A stretch of 27,834 nt of DNA, from positions 1-27,834 of the forward strand of contig DAOWHY010000016.1 in NCBI GenBank assembly GCA_030641185.1, in the 5' to 3' direction. Origin of the DNA: Candidatus Moraniibacteriota bacterium. GTDB taxonomy: Bacteria; Patescibacteriota; Minisyncoccia; JAHIHE01; JAGLIN01. The translations under genes were made by a program, and so were the position numbers. The notes under the pieces are model-generated. The model was not told where the DNA came from. It worked only from the letters and a program-made list of their open reading frames with translations, and did no database searches. Positions 4,146 through 24,973 of this stretch are shown here, one piece after another (position 1 is the stretch's first letter; each line of letters begins with the position of its first letter).

Positions 4146-5297
4146 TTACTCCAAAATAATATTCAATATCTTTCCATAAATCTCCATCGTCTCTCTCCCC
4201 ATCCTCTCCCAGCTATATTTTCTAATCTGCCTAAATCCTTTTTCTCTCAATTCATTATACAACTTTTTATCAGTTAGAACCAATTTCATTTTCTCAGCCA
4301 TTTCTTCTGGATTGTTTGGATTGAAATATATTGCCGCGTCGCCTAACACTTCAGGCAAACTGGTTTTATTTGAGGAGACAACCGGAGTTCCACAGGCCAT
4401 AGCTTCAAGCCCGATAAGTCCGAAGCCTTCATAAAAAGAAGGTATAACAAAAATTTCCGCGGCATTATAAAACAACGGCAGCTCTTCTTGTTTTATAAAT
4501 CCAGTTCTGATTATTTTTTTTTCTAGTCCTAATTTTTCCCATGTTTTTCTTACTTCCGGATAGTAAGGATCTTCTTTGCCACCTAACACGAGCTGGTAAT
4601 TTAATTTATATTTATTTTTCAGGACACCAAAAGCTTTAACCAGTCCGACTAAATTTTTATGATTTCTCCATACGCCAGTGTAAAAAATAAACGGTTTTGT
4701 TATATTATATTTTTTTTTAATTTCAGTGATTTTTTGATTATTGTTAATTATTTTAAACTGACTATCAGCTCCCTCATAAATTACCTTAATTTTATTTTCC
4801 TTGATTTTAAAATACTTAACAATATCACTTTTTGTATTTTCAGAAACTGCTATTACTTTTGACGCTTTCTTAACTGATGAAAAAAATACCGTTCTAAATC
4901 CGATCTTTCTTATAACAGATTTCATTTTATGTCCGGGGAAGAAATATGGAGTGACATCATGAATGGTAACTATTGATTTTTTAAAATACAGAACCGGTGA
5001 ATTAAAATGCGTAAAATGCATTAAATCCAAATTTTCTTTATATAACTCAATTGGAAATAAAATCTGTTCTTTCCATCCATACCATTTTGCGGAAACTTTT
5101 ATTTTTCTTATTCTTTCATTCGGCAATTCAAAATTATCATACTCTTCGGGCAACAAAAAAATGACATAGTTATTTTCTTTGTCTAATTCAAAAATATATT
5201 TGAGCAAATGACGGATATAATTTCCAATCCCCGTCTGCGCATACCCATACATCCGCGCATCAATGCCGATTTTATATTTTTTGGATTTAGTTGACAT
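4146..5297 (-). CDS. Glycosyltransferase family 4 (GT4 no. 1)
   Basis: The C-terminal motif [40 protein letters not shown] is the GT4 EX7E region. The start is moved to MSTKSKKYKIGIDAR (ATG at 5297) because the 18-codon upstream extension looks non-coding. Confidence 0.85.
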   Translation of the reverse strand: MSTKSKKYKIGIDARMYGYAQTGIGNYIRHLLKYIFELDKENNYVIFLLPEEYDNFELPNERIRKIKVSAKWYGWKEQILFPIELYKENLDLMHFTHFNSPVLYFKKSIVTIHDVTPYFFPGHKMKSVIRKIGFRTVFFSSVKKASKVIAVSENTKSDIVKYFKIKENKIKVIYEGADSQFKIINNNQKITEIKKKYNITKPFIFYTGVWRNHKNLVGLVKAFGVLKNKYKLNYQLVLGGKEDPYYPEVRKTWEKLGLEKKIIRTGFIKQEELPLFYNAAEIFVIPSFYEGFGLIGLEAMACGTPVVSSNKTSLPEVLGDAAIYFNPNNPEEMAEKMKLVLTDKKLYNELREKGFRQIRKYSWERMGRETMEIYGKILNIILE

Positions 5298-7703: not shown

Positions 7704-7829
7704 TTGTCGTTGCGAGAAGCCCGAGCGAGCGTAGCGAACGAAAAGGCGACGAAGCAATCCCGTGATTAAATTCTTTGCGCGTAGTTACGGGATTGCTTCG
7801 TCGCTCTGCGGAGCTCCCCGCAATGACAA
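7704..7829. mobile_element. Family A palindromic element, gene-less copy A1 (inverted relative to the others)
   Basis: The sequence is ttgtcgttgcgagaagcccgagcgagcgtagcgaacg...gacgaagcaatcccgt-[loop]-acgggattgcttcgtc...ccccgcaatgacaa. It fills the spacer between the Wzz-like stop and the GT4 no. 2 start. Confidence 0.85.
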
Positions 7830-9892: not shown

Positions 9893-10333
9893 TCAAAATA
9901 AACTTTCACTCTTCTCTCTTAAATCTAACTCCCTATTCACCATCTCATCCGCTAATTTATTTTTCTCTCTCGGAATATGAATAAATTTCACAGAATCAAA
10001 ATCAAGCGTTAAATTCCAGACTATAATAAAAAGCTTTTGCATTCCTTCATCTTTTATTTTGTATTCATGGTTCAATTGTTTAACAACAAGCTCGCTATCA
10101 AGATGACACTCAAGATTTTTATCCTTTATTTTTTGCGCTTTAAAAATCCCCTTCGCTTTCTGCAACGCTAAAATCAGCGCTTCATATTCGGCTTGATTGT
10201 TTGTTGTTTCGCCGAGATATTTTGAGGTTTTCAAAATAACCTCGTCTTTATCGTTTTTGATGACAACCCCGCCCGCGGCTGGACCTGGATTCCCGCGAGA
10301 ACCACCGTCGGTGTAAATAATTAGTTTGGACAT
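9893..10333 (-). CDS. rnhA: Ribonuclease HI
   Basis: MSKLIIYTDGGSRGNPGPAAGGVVI...NNQAEYEALILAL...IPREKNKLADEMVN matches RNase H. The track start at 10426 is rejected because codons 1-31 translate repeat A2. Confidence 0.85.
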   Translation of the reverse strand: MSKLIIYTDGGSRGNPGPAAGGVVIKNDKDEVILKTSKYLGETTNNQAEYEALILALQKAKGIFKAQKIKDKNLECHLDSELVVKQLNHEYKIKDEGMQKLFIIVWNLTLDFDSVKFIHIPREKNKLADEMVNRELDLREKSESLF

Positions 10334-10357
10334 AAATGTTGTTGATATATAAATTAA

Positions 10358-10494
10358 TGTCATTGCGAGAAGTGAAATTATCCGCAGGATAATTGAATGA
10401 CGAAGCAATCCCGTAACTACGCGCAAAGAATTTAATTCCGGGATTGCTTCGTCATTCCGCTTCGCTACGCTTAACTCCGTTCCTCACAATGAAA
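10358..10494. mobile_element. Family A palindromic element, gene-less copy A2
   Basis: The sequence is tgtcattgcgagaagtg...gacgaagcaatcccgtaactacgcgcaaagaatttaattccgggattgcttcgtc...cctcacaatgaaa. It overlaps the last 14 codons and the stop codon of the solute-binding protein gene. Confidence 0.85.
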
Positions 10495-11891
10495 GATAAA
10501 TTCCCAATCTTTCCAACTGCCTCATCAACTTTCGCCTCCCAATTTTCTCTATCCAAACATATCTCATCAATCATATCAATTAGAATTCTATCAATTTTAT
10601 TGTCAAATTTATTATAGCTAATTGCGGTTTCAGCTTGCGATGCAAAAGCGCTTATTTTATTATTTAGATCAATTTGTTCAGATATTAAATCTTTTCTCGC
10701 CGCGGCTTTGTTAGTTAAATTTAAATATATTTCTGAGTTTTCTTTTTGGGCGGCAAAACTCAAAAAGCTCCAAGCTATTTGAGAGCAATTTATTTCATCA
10801 GATAATGCGGCAGGTTTAGTTAGGCAATTATTATTATTTGAAACAACTGGCGTCCAGACATTAGAAAAATTTATAATCGCTGAATTTTCCAATTGCGGCA
10901 TTTTAGAAACACCATAATTAAGATCTGGATTTAGGGCTAATAAATTTTTTATTTGATAACTATATCCAATAAACATCGCTGTCTTGTTGTTAGCAAATGA
11001 CTTGATCGCTTCTTCCTGTTTACAATCCCAAACATATTTTTCTTTCTCTGAATCCGAAAATTCTGTGTAAAATATTATTGCTCTCTCGCCTGGAATTCTT
11101 TTTTCAATTCCGTTCATCGTATTAATTTCTATCTCTTTGTTTAGATCAATATTTTTATCAAAATCTATTATTCTCGCTCCGCCTTGCATCATAAGCAACG
11201 ACAAAATATCAGAAGAACTATTGATATTTTTTCCGCATCCGAAAGACGCTCCTGCTTGAATAATATTATTGTCCTTATCAAGCATTGTTAACTTGCTGGC
11301 AGTTTTTTTAAACTCTTCCCATGTTCGCGGTGGATTTTCTATTTCCATTTTGGCAAGTAAATCTTTGTTGTAGAAAAGCGCTAAAGAATCGGAATACATT
11401 GGCGATCCATACAGTTCGTTTTCATAAATTAAATCTCTAATCGTTTCAGCGGGAAATATTTCTAATAATTCTTCATATTTAATCAACTTATATTCTTCCG
11501 CGTAATTATCATCTCCCGTAAGCGGTTCAAGCTGGTTAAGATATTTTTCCAACCAATTATTATTAATCATCATAATATTCGGCTCGTTATTTTTTTCTTT
11601 TGCTTTTGCCAAATCTTCCTCGTAAGAGTTAAGATCTTTTTTAGTATAATTTATGGAAACATTTACTTCCTGCCAACCAAAATTATATATCTCGCTTTCA
11701 AATTTTTCTATTATCTCTTCCCAATCATCAGAATTATCCCACAATCCCCAAAATTCCAAAGTTACTTCAATTGGTTTTCTGTCTTCTTTAACTATTTCTT
11801 TTTCATCAATATTAGAATAATCCATCACGAAAACATATCCGATTGATACAAGAATTATTATTAAAAATGTAATTATTATTGTTTTAATCAT
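10452..11891 (-). CDS. Extracellular solute-binding protein (ABC-type, family 1-like) with signal anchor
   Basis: The N-terminal TM segment is followed by TLEFWGLWDNSDDWEEIIEKFE...SLALFYNKDLL...PPRTWEEFKK, which is typical of sugar-type SBPs. The C-terminal LSFIVRNGVKRSEAE is repeat-derived. Confidence 0.7.
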   Translation of the reverse strand: MIKTIIITFLIIILVSIGYVFVMDYSNIDEKEIVKEDRKPIEVTLEFWGLWDNSDDWEEIIEKFESEIYNFGWQEVNVSINYTKKDLNSYEEDLAKAKEKNNEPNIMMINNNWLEKYLNQLEPLTGDDNYAEEYKLIKYEELLEIFPAETIRDLIYENELYGSPMYSDSLALFYNKDLLAKMEIENPPRTWEEFKKTASKLTMLDKDNNIIQAGASFGCGKNINSSSDILSLLMMQGGARIIDFDKNIDLNKEIEINTMNGIEKRIPGERAIIFYTEFSDSEKEKYVWDCKQEEAIKSFANNKTAMFIGYSYQIKNLLALNPDLNYGVSKMPQLENSAIINFSNVWTPVVSNNNNCLTKPAALSDEINCSQIAWSFLSFAAQKENSEIYLNLTNKAAARKDLISEQIDLNNKISAFASQAETAISYNKFDNKIDRILIDMIDEICLDRENWEAKVDEAVGKIGNLSFIVRNGVKRSEAE

Positions 11892-11915: not shown

Positions 11916-12077
11916 TTGTCATTCCCGCACTGAAATAAATTCAGCATAAACTCCGGCGGGAATCCGGTAAATTTCAATAAACAATAATTATCGTAATAAT
12001 TTTGCAAGCGAAACTAACTGGATCCCAGACATTTTTTTCTAAAGCTTCGCTTTTAGAAAAAAATTCTGGGATGACAA
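11916..12077. repeat. Family B palindromic element, copy B1
   Basis: The sequence is ttgtcattcccgc...gcgggaatcc...ggatcccagacatttttttctaaagcttcgcttttagaaaaaaattctgggatgacaa. It aligns along its length with 16292-16449. Confidence 0.8.
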
Positions 12078-16291: not shown

Positions 16292-16449
16292 GTCATTCCC
16301 GCAAAATTTTCTGTCATTCCCGCGGAGGCGGGAATCCAGTAAGTCTCAATGAATAATATTTTTTCGTATAATTTTGATAAAGTGAAACAAACTGGATCCC
16401 AGATATTTTTTCTGAAGCTATCGCTTCAAAAAAAATTCTGGGATGACAA
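16292..16449. repeat. Family B palindromic element, copy B2
   Basis: The sequence is gtcattcccgc...gtcattcccgcggaggcgggaatcc...ggatcccagatattttttctgaagctatcgcttcaaaaaaaattctgggatgacaa. Confidence 0.8.
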
Positions 16450-17324: not shown

Positions 17325-17402
17325 AAATTTGTCATAGCGAGCTTGTCGAACTATGATAAATTTAGCGTGTTTGCCGCCCTTCGACAAGCTCGGGGTGACA
17401 CG
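17325..17402. repeat. Family C palindromic element, copy C1
   Basis: aaatttgtcatagcgagcttgtcgaactatgataaatttagcgtgtttgccgcccttcgacaagctcggggtgacac has the 12-bp stem gagcttgtcgaa/ttcgacaagctc. It aligns with 22018-22094. Confidence 0.8.
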
Positions 17403-17424: not shown

Positions 17425-19275
17425 TTATTTTTTCAACACTGATAAAAATGCTTCTTGCGGGATTTCAACTTTTCCGAATGATTTCATTTTTTTCTTTCCT
17501 TTCTTCTGCTTTTCTAATAGTTTCCTTTTACGAGAGACGTCTCCGCCATACAGTTTTGCGGTAACGTCTTTTCTGAAAGGCCTGATTGTTTCGCGAGCGA
17601 CTATTTTTCCCGAAATAGTCGCCTGAAGCGCGACGGCAAAATTCTGACGCGGGATTATATTTTTTAATTTAGCGACAACCTTTTTCCCCTCACTATAGCC
17701 TTCATCTCTTGGGACTATCCTTGAAAAGGCCTCAACTTTTTCTCCAGCGACAAGAATATCAAGTTTTACCAAATCCCATTCTTTAAACTCAATAAATTCA
17801 TAATTCATTGAAGCAAACCCGCTGGAGACACTTTTGAGATTATCGTAAAAATCAACTATAATATTAATCAACGGCGCTTCGTATTCCAAGATAACCCTGT
17901 CTTGCGAAAGGTAATCAGTTTTTTTATAAATAGTTCTAGAGCTCTCCGCCAATTTCATAACGGAACCCATTTTGTCTTTTGGCAAAACAATTTCGAGTTT
18001 AACCCACGGCTCTTTTATTTTTTCTATCATTCCTGGATCTGGCATCTCTGCTGGAGAAAATATTGTCAATTCTTTTCCGTCTCTCTTTCTAATCTGATAA
18101 GAAACAGAAGGAGTTGTAATTACAAGATTCATATTATATTCTCTGCTCAATCTTTCACTTATAATTTCCATATGAAGCATTCCGAGAAATCCACATCTGA
18201 AACCTCGTCCGAGAGCGGAAGAACTCTCTGGTTCAAAAAATAAAGCAGCGTCATTAAGCTTTAATTTTTCCAAGGCATCTTTAAGTTCAGGATAGTCGTT
18301 TCCTTCAACGGGATAAATACTTGCAAAAACCGTTGACCTGACTTCTTTATATCCTGGCAATGCTTCTATCTTATTTTCAATAATATTTTCCTCATCAACT
18401 TTTGACTTCTTGCTTTCAACTTTTAACCTCGTGATCGTATCTCCCACGCGACATTTATCAACTTCTTTCAGTCCAGTGGCGATATATCCAATATCTCCCG
18501 CTTCAAGACTATCTGTTTTTTCAAGCTGTGGCTTCATAATTCCAAGCTCTATAATTTCCGATTTTGTCTTTGAGCTAAGAAAATATATCTCATTGTTTTT
18601 ATTTATCACGCCGTCAACAATTCTAACTTGCGCGACAACACCTTTATATGAATCAAAATATGAATCAAAAACAAGCGCTCGCGCGGGCTTTTTTATGTCT
18701 CCATGCGGAGAAGGAATTTTTTCAATAATTTCTTTAAGAACTTCTGACACATTTTCGCCAGTTTTCGCGGATATTTTTATTATTTCTTTTTCCTCAATGC
18801 CGATTAAATCACTTATTTCTTTTGATGTTTTATTAACCATCGCGTTTGGCATATCAATTTTATTTATAACAGGAATTATAACTAAATCCTGTTCTATCGC
18901 CAAATATAAATTTGCTAATGTTTGCGCCTGAATTCCTTGAGTAGCGTCAATTAAAAGCACTGCTCCTTCAACAGCGGCAAGTGATCGCGAAACTTCATAA
19001 GAAAAATCAACATGACCGGGAGTGTCAATTAAGTTCAAAGTGTAAGGTATGAAGTCTAAAGTTTCTTGACTTTTGACTTTATATTCCATTTTTACCGGCT
19101 GAAGCTTTATCGTTATTCCTCTTTCTCTTTCTATATCCATTTGATCTAAAAGCTGATCTTTCATTTTTCTTTCTTCAACCGTTTTGGTCAACTCTAAAAG
19201 TCGATCAGCTAAAGTTGATTTTCCATGATCAATATGCGCGATAATACAAAAATTTCTTATATTTTCTTGAGACAT
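17425..19275 (-). CDS. lepA: Translation elongation factor 4
   Basis: IRNFCIIAHIDHGKSTLADRLLE...LIDTPGHVDF...NKID are GTPase motifs, and the LepA-specific C-terminal domain is present. Confidence 0.95.
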   Translation of the reverse strand: MSQENIRNFCIIAHIDHGKSTLADRLLELTKTVEERKMKDQLLDQMDIERERGITIKLQPVKMEYKVKSQETLDFIPYTLNLIDTPGHVDFSYEVSRSLAAVEGAVLLIDATQGIQAQTLANLYLAIEQDLVIIPVINKIDMPNAMVNKTSKEISDLIGIEEKEIIKISAKTGENVSEVLKEIIEKIPSPHGDIKKPARALVFDSYFDSYKGVVAQVRIVDGVINKNNEIYFLSSKTKSEIIELGIMKPQLEKTDSLEAGDIGYIATGLKEVDKCRVGDTITRLKVESKKSKVDEENIIENKIEALPGYKEVRSTVFASIYPVEGNDYPELKDALEKLKLNDAALFFEPESSSALGRGFRCGFLGMLHMEIISERLSREYNMNLVITTPSVSYQIRKRDGKELTIFSPAEMPDPGMIEKIKEPWVKLEIVLPKDKMGSVMKLAESSRTIYKKTDYLSQDRVILEYEAPLINIIVDFYDNLKSVSSGFASMNYEFIEFKEWDLVKLDILVAGEKVEAFSRIVPRDEGYSEGKKVVAKLKNIIPRQNFAVALQATISGKIVARETIRPFRKDVTAKLYGGDVSRKRKLLEKQKKGKKKMKSFGKVEIPQEAFLSVLKK

Positions 19276-19303: not shown

Positions 19304-19453
19304 AAACCTGTCATTGCGAGGAATGGAACGGAGCGATAGCGTAGTGGAATGACGAAGCAATCCCGTGACTATACACAAAGAATTTAATTACGGGATTGCT
19401 TCGTCGCCTTCTCACTCGCTACGCTCGCTCGGGCTTCTCGCAATGACAGGTTT
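19304..19453. mobile_element. Family A palindromic element, gene-less copy A3 (most complete)
   Basis: The sequence is aaacctgtcattgcgaggaatggaacggagcgatagcgtag...gacgaagcaatcccgtgactatacacaaagaatttaattacgggattgcttcgtcgccttctcactcgctacgctcgctcgggcttctcgcaatgacaggttt. Confidence 0.9.
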
Positions 19454-20465: not shown

Positions 20466-20601
20466 TTTGTCATCTCGAAGGAGTCGCAACGACCGAGAGA
20501 TCTCTTAAATCACACTATCGCATTTTACATTATTTAAGAGATTCCTCAATCGCGAGAGTTTATGCTGAATTTATTTCAGTGCTCATTTCGGAATGACAAA
20601 A
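20466..20601. repeat. Palindromic element D carrying a fragment shared with B1
   Basis: The sequence is ttttgtcatctcgaagg...gagagatctcttaaat...atttaagagattcctc...agtttatgctgaatttatttcagtgc...ggaatgacaaaa. Confidence 0.65.
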
Positions 20602-20734: not shown

Positions 20735-21094
20735 TTATGCTGTTAGAATCTGAGTAACAACAATAACCATAGCGTAAGCAAGACCAGCGACAACCATACC
20801 TATTATACCGTAAGAGATAGTCTTTTTAGCACTAGCAACAGCATCTTCGTTTCCTCCGGCAGTAAGATATTGAACACCTCCCCAGATAATTACTAGAGTA
20901 GCAATAATAGCAATGAAACCGAGAATGTAATTGGTAATGTTCATAACTGCTGCTTCTATATCATCTGGAACATTATCTGGCGGATTTTCATATCCCCATC
21001 CCTCTGATGGATCAGCGCTGGCAACGGAAGCAGAAAGAGCAAAAGCGTAAACGAGCAGTGAAGAGATTGACAACTTCTTCATTAAATTTTTCAT
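20735..21094 (-). CDS. TrbC/VirB2-like small membrane protein, paralog 1
   Basis: The signal peptide ends in SVASA. It is followed by NITNYILGF, TM1, WGGVQYLTAGGNEDAVASAKKT and TM2. The ATG at 21094 lies 6 nt after AGGGGGTG. Confidence 0.7.
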   Translation of the reverse strand: MKNLMKKLSISSLLVYAFALSASVASADPSEGWGYENPPDNVPDDIEAAVMNITNYILGFIAIIATLVIIWGGVQYLTAGGNEDAVASAKKTISYGIIGMVVAGLAYAMVIVVTQILTA

Positions 21095-21163
21095 TTTTTT
21101 CACCCCCTTTCAAATTATTAATTTATTTTTTCTATTTAATTTTGTAGAGTTTTATTATCCTTA

Positions 21164-21577
21164 TTATACAGGTGGAGGTGGAGGTGGGGCAGGAGCTAAT
21201 ACAATAGTTACAATAACATTTACTAACGCGTAAGCTATTCCAGCTATCACCAAACCTATTAAAGCATAGGTAACCACTCGTTTTCCTGTTGTAGCTCTAG
21301 TTTCATCTCCAGCCGATCCTATATACATCACTCCTCCCCAAATTACCATCAAAACCGCAAGCATTGCCACAAATCCGAGAATCCAGTTCGTCAGATTTAG
21401 AACAGCATTATCAAAACTTTCAGGAACACCCGTTGGCGGAGTGCCCATCGCAAAACCCTCAGCAAAAGCATTATTTATAAACAAAAACATTGACGACAAC
21501 ACGGCAAGCACACCAACGATCGCGCTTTTAATGGCGGTTTCTTTTTGATTAATTATTTCCATTGTTTTTTGTGCCAT
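21164..21577 (-). CDS. TrbC/VirB2-like small membrane protein, paralog 2 (poly-Pro tail)
   Basis: The signal peptide ends in NNAFA. It is followed by NLTNWILGF, TM1, WGGVMYIGSAGDETRATTGKR, TM2 and APAPPPPPPV. Confidence 0.7.
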   Translation of the reverse strand: MAQKTMEIINQKETAIKSAIVGVLAVLSSMFLFINNAFAEGFAMGTPPTGVPESFDNAVLNLTNWILGFVAMLAVLMVIWGGVMYIGSAGDETRATTGKRVVTYALIGLVIAGIAYALVNVIVTIVLAPAPPPPPPV

Positions 21578-21620
21578 ACTTTTTTGTTAATTTTTAATTA
21601 ATAAAATTTTAAAAAAATTC

Positions 21621-21983
21621 TTAAAGTATTTCGACAACTATAACATTTACAATAGCGTAAGAAACTCCTGCTATAAATACCCCTATCAACGCGTAATAAA
21701 TTATTTTCTTTGACAAATCCGCTTTTTGAACATCCCCGGAAGAAGCGATATAATTCAAACCGCCCCAAACTAATGCCAGCACCGAAACTGCCAAAGTAAA
21801 TTCAAGAAGCCAGTTGGTCAGATTTAATATTCCTACATCAAGATCTTCTATTAAGCTACCGCCTGGATTATCTGGAAGCACCCATCCGTCAGCAGTGGCA
21901 ACGCGAGTTATTATTGTTGACATTGCCAAACAAACAGCAATCGCGCAAAAATTTAAATACTTATTATTCTTTATTATCTTCAT
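21621..21983 (-). CDS. TrbC/VirB2-like small membrane protein, paralog 3
   Basis: The signal peptide ends in RVATA. It is followed by NLTNWLLEF, TM1, WGGLNYIASSGDVQKADLSKK and TM2. Confidence 0.7.
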   Translation of the reverse strand: MKIIKNNKYLNFCAIAVCLAMSTIITRVATADGWVLPDNPGGSLIEDLDVGILNLTNWLLEFTLAVSVLALVWGGLNYIASSGDVQKADLSKKIIYYALIGVFIAGVSYAIVNVIVVEIL

Positions 21984-22017
21984 TACCTATATTATTACAT
22001 TTTTTATTTACGCAGTC

Positions 22018-22094
22018 AAATTTGTCATAGTGAGCTTGTCAAACTATGATAGATTTAGCGCGCTTGCCACCCTTCAACAAGCTCAGGATGACAG
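22018..22094. repeat. Family C palindromic element, copy C2
   Basis: aaatttgtcatagtgagcttgtcaaactatgatagatttagcgcgcttgccacccttcaacaagctcaggatgacag lies between pilin-like paralogs 4 and 3. Confidence 0.8.
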
Positions 22095-22122
22095 TTCTTT
22101 TATATTTTGTTTTTTAACATTT

Positions 22123-22512
22123 CTAATGAAAAATCGTATCCAGAATTTTTATAATAGCAAAAGAAGTTCCGGCTACGAAAATTCCGAGCAGAGCATACTT
22201 GACAATTTTTTTGGCGTTTTCCGTTTTTTGCATATCTCCTGAAGAGGAAACATAATAAAGACCTCCATAAATTAACGCCACCACTGAAATTGCGACAGCA
22301 AGTTTCAGAAGTTCGCTAACCGCGGCATCTATCACATCCGGGATTAAACTATCTGGCACACCAGCAGGTAAACAGTTGACAGGATCGTTAAACATATTCT
22401 TGCCGCCTTCATAATCACACTCTGCTCCAGTATAATTAACGAACAATAAAGAAGAAACTACAAAAATACTTAAAACAAATAATGTGGTTTTTTTTAAAGT
22501 TAAGCTTTTCAT
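22123..22512 (-). CDS. TrbC/VirB2-like small membrane protein, paralog 4 (most divergent, two Cys)
   Basis: A signal peptide is followed by a longer N-terminal region with C..C, then TM1, YGGLYYVSSSGDMQKTENAKK and TM2. Confidence 0.65.
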   Translation of the reverse strand: MKSLTLKKTTLFVLSIFVVSSLLFVNYTGAECDYEGGKNMFNDPVNCLPAGVPDSLIPDVIDAAVSELLKLAVAISVVALIYGGLYYVSSSGDMQKTENAKKIVKYALLGIFVAGTSFAIIKILDTIFH

Positions 22513-22978: not shown

Positions 22979-22996
22979 ATTTTTAATTTTCAATTT

Positions 22997-23493
22997 AAAC
23001 CTGTCATTGCGAGGAGCCTGAACGAACGCAGTGAGTGAGATGGCAACAAAGCAATCCCGAAACTACACGCAAGAATCAAATTATAAAGTTATTTTATTTA
23101 TTTTAAACCCTTAGCTTCCTCGATCAAGTCCTTTCATTCTGGATTCATTTTTTCAATAAATTCTATTTTCTTTTTTCTTGATCCCGCTTTTATTTGTTTT
23201 TCTCTGGTGATAGCTATTTTAATATCATTACATACTTCATAATAAACGATCGTGTCTATATTATATTTTGCGGTAAAACTGTTTTTATCAATTTTACTTT
23301 TATGTTGATATTCTCTTCTAAACAAATCGTTAGTTACTCCAACATATACCGTGGCGTGTCTTTTGTTAGTGGCTATATAAATATAATATTGCTTTTCTTT
23401 CATATCCTAAACAAAAGTTTTATTGGCTTAGATGCGGGATTGCTTCGTCGCCTTCTCACTTGCTATGCTCGTTCGGGCTCCTCGCAATGACAA
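22997..23493. mobile_element. Family A element carrying a GIY-YIG nuclease gene between inverted arms of about 60 nt
   Basis: The left arm is aaacctgtcattgcgaggagcctgaacgaacgcagtgagtgagatggcaacaaagcaatcccg. The right arm is gcgggattgcttcgtcgccttctcacttgctatgctcgttcgggctcctcgcaatgacaag. They are reverse complements with roughly ten mismatches. Confidence 0.75.
23134..23403 (-). CDS. GIY-YIG nuclease family protein (UPF0213/COG2827-like, 89 aa)
   Basis: YYIYIATNKRHATVYVGVTNDLFRREYQHKS...ITREKQIKAGSRKKKIEFI contains the GIY...YVG, R and E/K-rich tail hallmarks. Confidence 0.8.
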   Translation of the reverse strand: MKEKQYYIYIATNKRHATVYVGVTNDLFRREYQHKSKIDKNSFTAKYNIDTIVYYEVCNDIKIAITREKQIKAGSRKKKIEFIEKMNPE

Positions 23494-23500
23494 GTTGCAT

Positions 23501-24973
23501 TTAATCACCACTCTTTTCATAAACGTTAGCCGTTTTTAAAATCGTTTTTTCATCAAAATGTTTTCCTATAATTTGCATTCCAACAGGCATTTCTACATTT
23601 CCATTTTTTGGTTTGGCAAAACCACAGGGAATGGAAATAGCTGGAACGCCAGCTAAGCTTGCGGCGCTTAAGAAAATGTCTTCCATATATAATTCAAGCG
23701 GATTGTCGCTGTGCTCGCCAATTTTGAAAGCGACATTTGGTGAAGTTGGAATTATTATGACATCAACTTTTTCAAAAGCGTTGTCAAAATCTTTTTTAAT
23801 GAGCGCTCTCGCTTTTTGCGCCTGCAAATAATACGCGTCATAATATCCGCTGCTCAAAGCGTAAGTTCCCAGTATAATTCGCCGTTTTGCTTCACTGCCA
23901 AATCCATTTGCTCTTGATTTTAAATAGACATCCTCTAAACTTTTGACTTTTGAATTTTGACTTTTGACTTCACTGTAGCCGTATTTTATACCATCAAATC
24001 TAGCCAAATTAGAACTTACTTCGGATGGCATGATTATATAATAAGTCGGAACCGCGTATTTTGTGTGAGGCAAGCTGATTTCAACTATTTCCGCTCCCAA
24101 TTTTTCTAATTTTTCAATTGCGTTTTGAACAGCGTTTTTAATTTTGCTATCTAATTCTTCAATAAAATATTCTTTTGGAACGCCTATTTTTAAACCTTCA
24201 ATATTTTCGTTTTTTATAAACTCAAAATAATCATCAACTTTTCGATCAGAAGATGTCGCATCCATCTTGTCTTTTCCCGCTAATTCTTTTAAAAGCAAAG
24301 CGGCGTCAGAAACATTTTTTGCCATTATGCCTGGACAATCGGTTGAAGAAGTCATTGAAATAAGCCCATATCTTGATATTCTTCCGTAAGTCGGTTTTAG
24401 TCCGACAACTCCGCAAAATGCCGCCGGCTGTCTTATGGATCCGCCAGTGTCAGTTCCGATCGAGTAAAAACATTGATCCGATGCAACGGAAGACGCAGAT
24501 CCCCCAGAAGATCCTCCGGGCACTCTTTCTAAATCCCAAGGATTATGAGTTGTAAAAAAATCAGAATTTTCTGTGGAAGATCCGTGCGCGAAAGCGTCAC
24601 AGTTTACTTTTCCAAGCATCACCATTCCGCGATTTTTTAATTTTGATATCAAAGTTGCGTCATAGGGCGGAATGTAATTCTTCAAAATATTGGACGCGGC
24701 CGTGGTCAAAACGTTTTTTGTTAAAATAATATCTTTAATAGAACACGGAATTCCCAGTAATAAATTATCTTTTTCATCGCCAGATTTAATTTTTCGATCC
24801 GCTTTCTCAGCTTGCAGCAATGCGTAATTTTCCGTCACGGTAATAAAAGATTTTATTTTATCATCCGTTTTTTTTATTTCATCCAAACAAGCCGTTGTTA
24901 ATTCAACGGAAGAAAGGTCTCTGTTTTTTAGCCTATCACTGGCTTCGGTTATAGTTAGTTCGTTTAGTCTCAT
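23501..24973 (-). CDS. gatA: Glutamyl-tRNA(Gln) amidotransferase subunit A
   Basis: The amidase signature GGSSGGSASSVASDQCFYSIGTDTGGSIRQPAAFCGVVGLKPTYG is present. Confidence 0.95.
   Translation of the reverse strand: MRLNELTITEASDRLKNRDLSSVELTTACLDEIKKTDDKIKSFITVTENYALLQAEKADRKIKSGDEKDNLLLGIPCSIKDIILTKNVLTTAASNILKNYIPPYDATLISKLKNRGMVMLGKVNCDAFAHGSSTENSDFFTTHNPWDLERVPGGSSGGSASSVASDQCFYSIGTDTGGSIRQPAAFCGVVGLKPTYGRISRYGLISMTSSTDCPGIMAKNVSDAALLLKELAGKDKMDATSSDRKVDDYFEFIKNENIEGLKIGVPKEYFIEELDSKIKNAVQNAIEKLEKLGAEIVEISLPHTKYAVPTYYIIMPSEVSSNLARFDGIKYGYSEVKSQNSKVKSLEDVYLKSRANGFGSEAKRRIILGTYALSSGYYDAYYLQAQKARALIKKDFDNAFEKVDVIIIPTSPNVAFKIGEHSDNPLELYMEDIFLSAASLAGVPAISIPCGFAKPKNGNVEMPVGMQIIGKHFDEKTILKTANVYEKSGD

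Follow-up and report, generated by a model that had tools for sequence, protein, structure and literature searches.

In a 27,834-nucleotide (nt) contig of a Candidatus Moraniibacteriota bacterium (GenBank assembly GCA_030641185.1, contig DAOWHY010000016.1, positions 1 to 27,834; hereafter the window), the spacer between gatA and iscU carries a small GIY-YIG nuclease gene framed by two inverted arms of a dispersed palindromic repeat. We assign this locus, with a probability of about 0.72, to the Ssn system, i.e., to small single-domain GIY-YIG nuclease genes bracketed by two inverted cognate units with a TGTC tag. This kind of system was published in 2025, and our additions are evidence of gain and loss, a repeat type missed by the published search pattern, and co-variation of enzyme and repeat. 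The window and its relatives thus provide comparative evidence on the mobility of the repeat-gene-repeat unit, a hypothesis in the 2025 Ssn paper, as orthologous junctions vary at a synonymous divergence (dS) of ~0.1. An earlier reading of the DNA without database searches (the sequence-only reading) had regarded small GIY-YIG proteins as having no established mobility mechanism; the view that they have no known link to repeats is superseded, since the Ssn family, its flanking repeats and its insertion sequence (IS)-like layout are described (PMC11893778). The unit and its immediate neighbours comprise the following features, with lengths of proteins in amino acids (aa):

22978, minus strand: start ATG of iscU (NifU_N domain).
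22997–23059, plus strand: downstream arm in gene orientation, the second repeat unit, AAACC-TGTCATTGCGAG...AACAAAGCAATCCCG, with an outward TGTC tag at 23002–23005.
23060–23082, minus strand: internal 23-nt segment that adjoins the downstream arm and shares homology with the 24-nt loop of gene-less doublets.
23098–23133, minus strand: former last 11 codons (KDLIEEAKGLK) and original stop of the nuclease gene, untranslated now and still intact.
23134–23403, minus strand: GIY-YIG (Ssn-like) open reading frame (ORF) of 89 aa, ending at a premature TGA at codon 90.
23404–23434, minus strand: 31-nt leader from arm to ATG, in which AGGA stands 4 nt ahead of the start codon; the related loci L081, L083 and L090 share it.
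23435–23496, minus strand: upstream arm in gene orientation, TGTCATTGCGAG, a 31-nt distal insert and GACGAAGCAATCCCG, with the TGTC tag at 23489–23492 and a palindromic extension to 23496.
23501–24973, minus strand: gatA (Amidase, E 6e-150).

The arms (22998–23065 and 23429–23496) are inverted, 68 nt long and 82% complementary, and their local alignment score of 76 lies far above the 14.8 ± 2.1 obtained for 500 dinucleotide shuffles (z = 28.7); arm length is elsewhere given as 58–68 nt. Both start with (A)AC(C/T)TGTCATTGCGAGGAGCC and end with GCAATCCCG, and their TGTC tags face outward. Each arm is a composite of a constant head (TGTC-ATTGC-GAG), a variable insert and a constant tail (GACGAA-GCAAT-CCCG), so that the stem of the unit is 5 bp (ATTGC...GCAAT) with 30–45 nt between its halves. 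The head TGTCATTGCGAGGAG (≤3 mismatches) and the tail GACGAAGCAATCCCG occur eight times each in the window, in four inverted pairs, against an expectation of 0.26–0.27. Inserts of at least four types are combined across the arms, and most pairs are therefore heterodimers. A literature search for the motif string returned chance primer matches only. The unit had been proposed to fill the gatA-iscU spacer exactly; it takes up almost all of it, leaving ~4 nt on the gatA side and ~20 nt before the iscU ATG, and the TTG at 22993 listed as the iscU start is probably not a real start.

That the ORF between the arms is of the GIY-YIG type was borne out by a match to PF01541 (E 1.1e-12, 48.5 bits against a cut-off of 22.6) covering residues 5–79 of 89. 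The AlphaFold model has the GIY-YIG fold (mean predicted local distance difference test score, pLDDT, 85), with the UPF0213 protein BH0048 (1ZG2), Slx1 and the UvrC N-terminal domain as nearest folds in the PDB. A PDB sequence search with the window protein gave no relative below E 0.1, and NCBIfam gave no match above cut-off (the group I intron endonuclease model reached 15.5 bits against a cut-off of 56). Y9, Y20 and E68 do not vary across the family alignment. A ratio of nonsynonymous to synonymous divergence (dN/dS) of 0.09–0.23 among the gene copies shows purifying selection, and one nuclease gene copy per contig was seen. Viral contigs yielded only 38 relatives, mostly distant, so phages are not the main carriers of the nuclease gene.

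Chenal et al. (2025, Nat Commun, PMC11893778) gave the name Ssn to single-domain GIY-YIG proteins of cd10448 (GIY-YIG_unchar_3), which bind a directional hairpin repeat, called NTS in Neisseria and SRM in general, as single-stranded DNA (ssDNA) only and cut a few nt 5′ of it in single-stranded, not double-stranded, DNA. In that work 42% of the homologs were repeat-flanked on both sides, and the authors likened the repeat-gene-repeat layout to an insertion sequence and left its mobility as a hypothesis; the features critical for SsnA were a GTC tag, a palindrome starting with AT, and a C after the palindrome (PMC11893778). The window unit keeps all three, in inverted directional repeats of the form (C/T)GTC, AT-starting palindrome and C on both sides of the gene, and the same repeat is dispersed in intergenic DNA, as in the Ssn-NTS/SRM systems. 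The protein belongs to the same size class of ~90–100 aa, has no extra domain and shares the catalytic Tyr/Tyr/Glu arrangement, with spacings of 11 and 48 compared with 11 and 47 for Y6/Y17/E64 of SsnA, the one extra residue being seen in the pairwise alignment. The systems differ in several respects: the window core ATTGC...GCAAT encloses a non-palindromic or variable insert of 12–45 nt, whereas theirs is an 8-bp stem with a 4-nt loop; the window protein falls in a distinct EKQIK-(A/G)GS subfamily, in a Parcubacteria host of the candidate phyla radiation (CPR); and polymorphic insertion and loss are documented for the window element.

Homologs of the window protein tie the locus to repeats of the published kinds. 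The gene of L122 (60% identity to the window protein, E 2e-38) is surrounded by five matches to the published SRM pattern, HGTCWYN(0-2)YYVSBRHN(0-5)WNVSBRGN(0-2)RNCYNB. L198 (39% identity, E 3e-27) has outward-facing repeats on both sides, both conforming to the NTS consensus of N. meningitidis: the match is exact for the upstream repeat, and the downstream one departs from it by a T at the first C. The deltaproteobacterial contig L075 encodes two paralogs, one flanked by NTS (46% identical to the window protein, E 1e-30) and the other by ATTGC units. The published SRM pattern matched in only 3 of the first 80 homolog loci; it also misses near-canonical repeats such as TGTCATTCCCGCGGAAGCGGGAATCCAG, and the TGTCATTGCGAG type fails it at the YY positions. 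It is therefore too narrow as a test of membership, and the repeat type that it misses, TGTCATTGCGAG...GCAATC, was found beside homologs in many phyla.

In all, 160 homolog loci were surveyed, 80 from genomes and 80 from metagenomes, with 49–66% identity and from Chloroflexota, Patescibacteria, Cyanobacteria, Bacteroidota, Pseudomonadota and others; the metagenome protein scan, used for the association statistics, covered relatives of ≤65% identity, the close lineage not being among them. Units of the form TGTCATTGCGAG...GAAGCAATC were concentrated beside the gene, with 70% of them within 11% of the sequence in genomes and 88% within 24% in metagenomes. A pair of outward tags was present in 36 of 78 usable genome loci and 20 of 71 usable metagenome loci. 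The repeat type followed the protein. ATTGC units were nearby in 109 of 113 cases for EKQIK-AGS proteins, and likewise for most EKQIK-GGS proteins; the KGWLR proteins inspected had ATTCT...AGAAT units (TGTCATTCTGAG...GAAGAATCTC); and KxW.R.WK proteins had NTS-type repeats (ATTCCCGC..GCGGGAAT) or none detected by the two patterns used. Nuclease subfamily and repeat type thus co-vary, which fits the published idea of many enzyme-repeat pairs, and the protein segment after EKQIK may set repeat specificity. This co-variation bears on the proposed use of Ssn proteins as programmable ssDNA cutters. Among the homolog loci (L001–L212), what the published SRM pattern picks up is confined to a portion of the KxW.R.WK/NTS class.

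The same arms were reported to recur in the window with no gene between them, and three such doublets, each of two inverted units joined by a 24-nt loop, were confirmed:

7705–7828: doublet between a Wzz-like gene and a glycosyltransferase gene (the Wzz-GT4 site), inverted relative to the other two short copies.
10358–10494: doublet between a solute-binding-protein gene and an RNase H gene, present in L092 and absent in L093.
19304–19453: doublet between obg and lepA, absent in L094 and L093.

These copies exceed shuffled controls with z = 23–53, and they fold strongly as DNA (z −5 to −11 against shuffles). Their loop matches 23060–23082, just inside the left arm of the gene copy, in 19 of 22 aligned bases with one 1-nt gap (z = 4.5), as the sequence-only reading had noticed, and gene-bearing copies of relatives hold a loop-like segment at the same position. 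By their sequences, the doublets look like internal-deletion versions with one common deletion end point that have been copied since, resembling miniature inverted-repeat transposable elements (MITEs) or REPINs. The earlier proposal of an autonomous parent with MITE-like derivatives consequently stands in part: gene copy and deletion-like doublets form one repeat system, but "autonomous" is unproven, as Ssn proteins are hydrolytic ssDNA nickases, not strand-transferases, and the window gene has a premature stop.

Repeat arms are also read into neighbouring genes by ORF callers. The RNase H and solute-binding-protein ORFs of the window (9893–10426 and 10452–11891) extend into the 10358 doublet, and at L090:3001-4500 a GatA of 499 aa ends in CHCEE, which is the arm read into the ORF. 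Translated arms probably explain why GatA and LepA homologs in databases differ in length.

Among close relatives, the complete unit (arm, leader, gene, 23-nt segment, arm) was found at three loci, namely gatA-iscU in the window and L090, mraZ-rsmH in L083 and L084, and next to a DUF5752 gene in L081 (94% protein identity). The gatA-iscU junction itself varies. In L086 (gatA dS 0.095 to the window) it holds a solo unit with identical flanks, which looks like the product of a deletion between two GCAAT motifs; in L087 (gatA dS 0.116 to L090) it holds an unrelated palindrome; and in L091 it is empty, with an 11-nt spacer, an instance of the empty sites suggested as a check on mobility. In GCA_023142975.1 the unit occupies mraZ-rsmH and is missing from gatA-iscU. 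Presence/absence polymorphism extends to the doublets, the obg-lepA doublet being absent from L093 and also from L094, where LepA is 98% identical and the spacer is 10 nt; at this junction L092 has another element, of the TGTCATTCTGAA type, as does L093 at the Wzz-GT4 site of the window's 7705 doublet. The sequence-only reading had named a lack of such polymorphism among close relatives as evidence against itself, and this check came out in its favour. In a spacer between genes of pilin-like proteins, a series of states was seen: empty (L091), ATTGC doublet (L086), half-deleted doublet (L087) and a 12-nt footprint, TGTCATTGACAG (L090), the window having a second palindrome family there. Empty junctions have spacers of 10–13 nt in relatives with 86–98% identical proteins. 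The nuclease gene is lost or truncated in close relatives, and element dS between loci is 0.16–0.25. Judged from these sequence comparisons, the full, solo, footprint and empty states, together with the presence of the gene unit at three loci, mean that gene unit and doublets alike are mobile or unstable over short spans of evolutionary time. The losses resemble deletions at short repeats, stimulated by the palindromes.

At obg-lepA, comparison of window 19205–19235 with L094:1625-1648 revealed, besides the doublet, 31 extra nt in the window on the lepA side, partly repeating the 16 nt just ahead of the insertion (AGATTATAAAAATAAA). Such similarity is suggestive only, either of a long imperfect target duplication (16 nt) or of chance similarity in AT-rich DNA.

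Several points weigh against assigning the locus to the Ssn system. The published SRM pattern has no match in the window, and a single arm folds no better than shuffles (DNA fold z 0.16 and −0.02), unlike the canonical NTS hairpin. For these two reasons the locus is filed as of the Ssn kind with its own repeat type and not as a canonical-SRM carrier. Membership was judged through proxies, that is, homologs flanked by NTS- or SRM-type repeats, and the nuclease activity of the subfamily is a prediction from sequence. Some nuclease copies are decaying, as shown by the premature stop in the window and by a stop at the same codon together with R67I in L083. The target-site duplications proposed as a further check did not appear consistently: the flank test gave 6.7 for the same element versus 6.2 ± 1.3 across elements, and none was seen in the pilin-gene spacer. 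Compared with classical IS and their MITEs, which have terminal inverted repeats and a target-site duplication of fixed length, the window element has inverted repeats, and its flank comparison gives no signal of duplication. Finally, insertion is not explained by one hydrolytic nick per strand alone.

By analogy with N. meningitidis SsnA (PMC11893778), the protein would bind the unit in ssDNA and nick a few nt 5′ of the GTC tag; as the tags point outward, one strand would then be nicked just beyond one end of the element and the other strand just beyond the other end. A hydrolytic enzyme of this sort would perform no strand transfer, so host replication or recombination would have to be involved, and copying to new sites as well as loss could proceed by template switching, by gene conversion between repeat-bearing sites or by palindrome-stimulated deletion. 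The doublets could have arisen from a gene copy by one internal deletion sharing the 3′ internal end point (the 24-nt loop), followed by copying. A broader proposal, which we regard as possible at somewhat less than even odds, is that Ssn nucleases and TGTC-tagged repeats make up a second class of REPIN-like mobile DNA, independent of RAYT (the transposase of REPINs), in which a hydrolytic single-strand nickase drives copying and loss via host replication or repair and specificity is set by the segment after EKQIK, (A/G)GS for ATTGC, GWL for ATTCT and KW.R.WK for ATTCCCGC. If this were true, the window's Parcubacteria lineage, in which full, solo, footprint and empty alleles all occur, would lend itself naturally to demonstrating it.

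A competing explanation, which we hold to be rather unlikely but which is compatible with most of the data, is that the nuclease is a domesticated host function that cuts incoming or replicating ssDNA at the repeats and so modulates transformation or recombination, as proposed for Neisseria, where SsnA of N. meningitidis lowers the integration of NTS-bearing DNA (PMC11893778). Spread and decay of the repeats would then follow from ordinary recombination and from the instability of palindromes, while the repeats beside the gene itself would have a role in regulation or linkage; the difference from a mobile unit lies mainly in who benefits. Purifying selection and the single gene copy per contig agree with a host function, as do the co-directionality of the gene with its neighbours in all four contexts and the failure to find a convincing promoter of its own in the upstream arm or leader, and the TrbC/type IV secretion system (T4SS)-pilin-like proteins encoded in the window make DNA uptake or transfer plausible in this lineage. 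Against it, the gene travels with both arms to unrelated loci, its loss or truncation in close relatives would be unexpected for a needed function, and the dS of the element between loci is not simply that of host genes.

The direction could also be reversed, with the doublets primary and the nuclease gene a cargo that entered a doublet loop and spread by homing-like gene conversion with the 58-nt arms as homology. The gene segment does lie exactly between one arm's inner end and the 23 nt homologous to the loop, the arms mix and match with doublets (in L081, the upstream arm shares its hairpin insert with the 10358 doublet and the downstream arm its short insert with the 7705 doublet), and L086 has only a solo unit at gatA-iscU, where the window has the gene. 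Yet one loop and the same end points are common to all doublets, which favours a single deletion followed by copying of the doublet over a step from doublet to gene copy; the arm-gene-arm layout is already present in gene-bearing units of distant phyla; and classical double-strand-break homing is not expected from Ssn proteins reported to cut ssDNA and not double-stranded DNA. We therefore judge this order of events improbable. Least probable by far is that the arms and palindromes are primarily conserved regulatory hairpins, acting as terminators or mRNA stabilisers for the housekeeping genes beside them, with the nuclease gene incidental. The doublets fold into long hairpins between co-directional genes, an arm end supplies an outward −35-like hexamer, ATGACA, before iscU, and repetitive extragenic palindromes (REPs) are known to affect mRNA stability (PMC3733652), so secondary effects on expression are possible. 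However, in other relatives the sites are held by unrelated palindrome families, a terminator scan found none at the arms, Rfam at gathering threshold recognised only a tRNA-Leu in the window and nothing at the repeats, and the same junctions stand empty in relatives with 86–98% identical proteins. These empty sites contradict regulation as the primary explanation, and with it the earlier concern that the arms might be conserved hairpins of the neighbouring genes.

The assignment to the Ssn kind can be set beside other repeat systems. CGTC/TGTC-tagged REPs, often inverted dimers for which no dedicated enzyme was found (Di Nocera, De Gregorio & Rocco 2013, PMC3733652), share with the window unit an unpaired terminal tag (here TGTC), a stem starting A-T (ATTGC...GCAAT) and a short C-rich tail (CCCG), and are mostly inverted pairs around conserved spacers, often heterodimers, just as all eight window units form four inverted pairs; the four published families have stems of 8–9 bp and loops of 4–5 nt, whereas the window has a 5-bp stem and a long insert. 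REPIN-RAYT systems (Bertels & Rainey 2011, PMC3116915) likewise show inverted-repeat doublets that form long hairpins dispersed between genes and a nuclease gene, in most cases single-copy, that lies between inverted repeats too, but their enzyme is an HUH/Y1 transposase with a covalent intermediate and not a hydrolytic GIY-YIG protein, and their tag is GTAG instead of TGTC. Recognition of structured ssDNA ends, presumed here by analogy, would be common to the IS200/IS605 elements ("peel and paste"), which lack inverted repeats at their ends, are cut twice on the same strand and have a TnpA of unrelated fold. GIY-YIG homing endonucleases of the I-TevI type have in common the catalytic fold and a small free-standing mobile gene; unlike them, the window protein has no DNA-binding domain or linker and lies in neither an intron nor a phage genome, and its relatives cut ssDNA only.

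With regard to the state of the gene, codon 90 is TGA in the window and TGG in relatives in the family alignment; the ancestral length is 101 aa, which is that of most close homologs. The codons downstream of the TGA are intact, and by this sequence evidence the nonsense mutation is recent; the window copy may be inactive or attenuated through it. L083 and L084 carry an independent TAG at the same Trp codon (L083 ~5268–5270; window TGA 23134–23136), with the downstream codons intact in both, and the L083 nuclease also has R67I, affecting a nearly invariant Arg. TGG is among the few codons turned into a stop by a single transition, and nothing further is read into the shared position. Recoding of UGA at the in-frame TGA is disfavoured, as table 11 gives long ORFs for the other window genes and L083 has TAG as its independent stop.

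On the iscU side, the outer arm end, ATGACA, and its AT-rich flank (22979–23007, minus strand) form a −35/−10-like match directed into iscU; from this match to the consensus, the arm end may act as a promoter directed outward, of the kind present in some insertion sequences. Downstream of iscU, four tandem paralogs encode the small TrbC/T4SS-pilin-like proteins (20735–22512), conserved in all relatives examined.

The window contains further repeats. The second palindrome family, with TGTCA tags (TGTCA(C/T)C..GAGCTTGT(C/T)GAAGGG ... CAAGCTC.CTATGACA), has two copies that are 88% identical (17325–17400 and 22018–22093), the latter in the pilin-gene spacer, and no cognate nuclease gene for it was found in the window. 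A third element type occurs in the relatives (L092:9760-9975 and L093:20416-20640), ~250 nt long with TGTCATTCTGAA...TTCAGGATGACA ends and a non-coding core; as it sits at junctions (obg-lepA, Wzz-GT4) that hold ATTGC doublets in the window, the same short spacers have been hit repeatedly by different TGTC-tagged elements. A ~107-nt direct repeat, 77–78% identical, is present in two intergenic regions (11955–12061 and 16327–16435), and a 32-nt inverted pair (94%; 11927–11958 and 20551–20582) contains the CTGAAATAAATTCAG hairpin. Adjoining the tRNA-Leu (1033–1113) is a 102-nt palindrome at 1162–1263, consisting of two 51-nt arms that are 80% complementary with no spacer, which contains GTCATTGGC.

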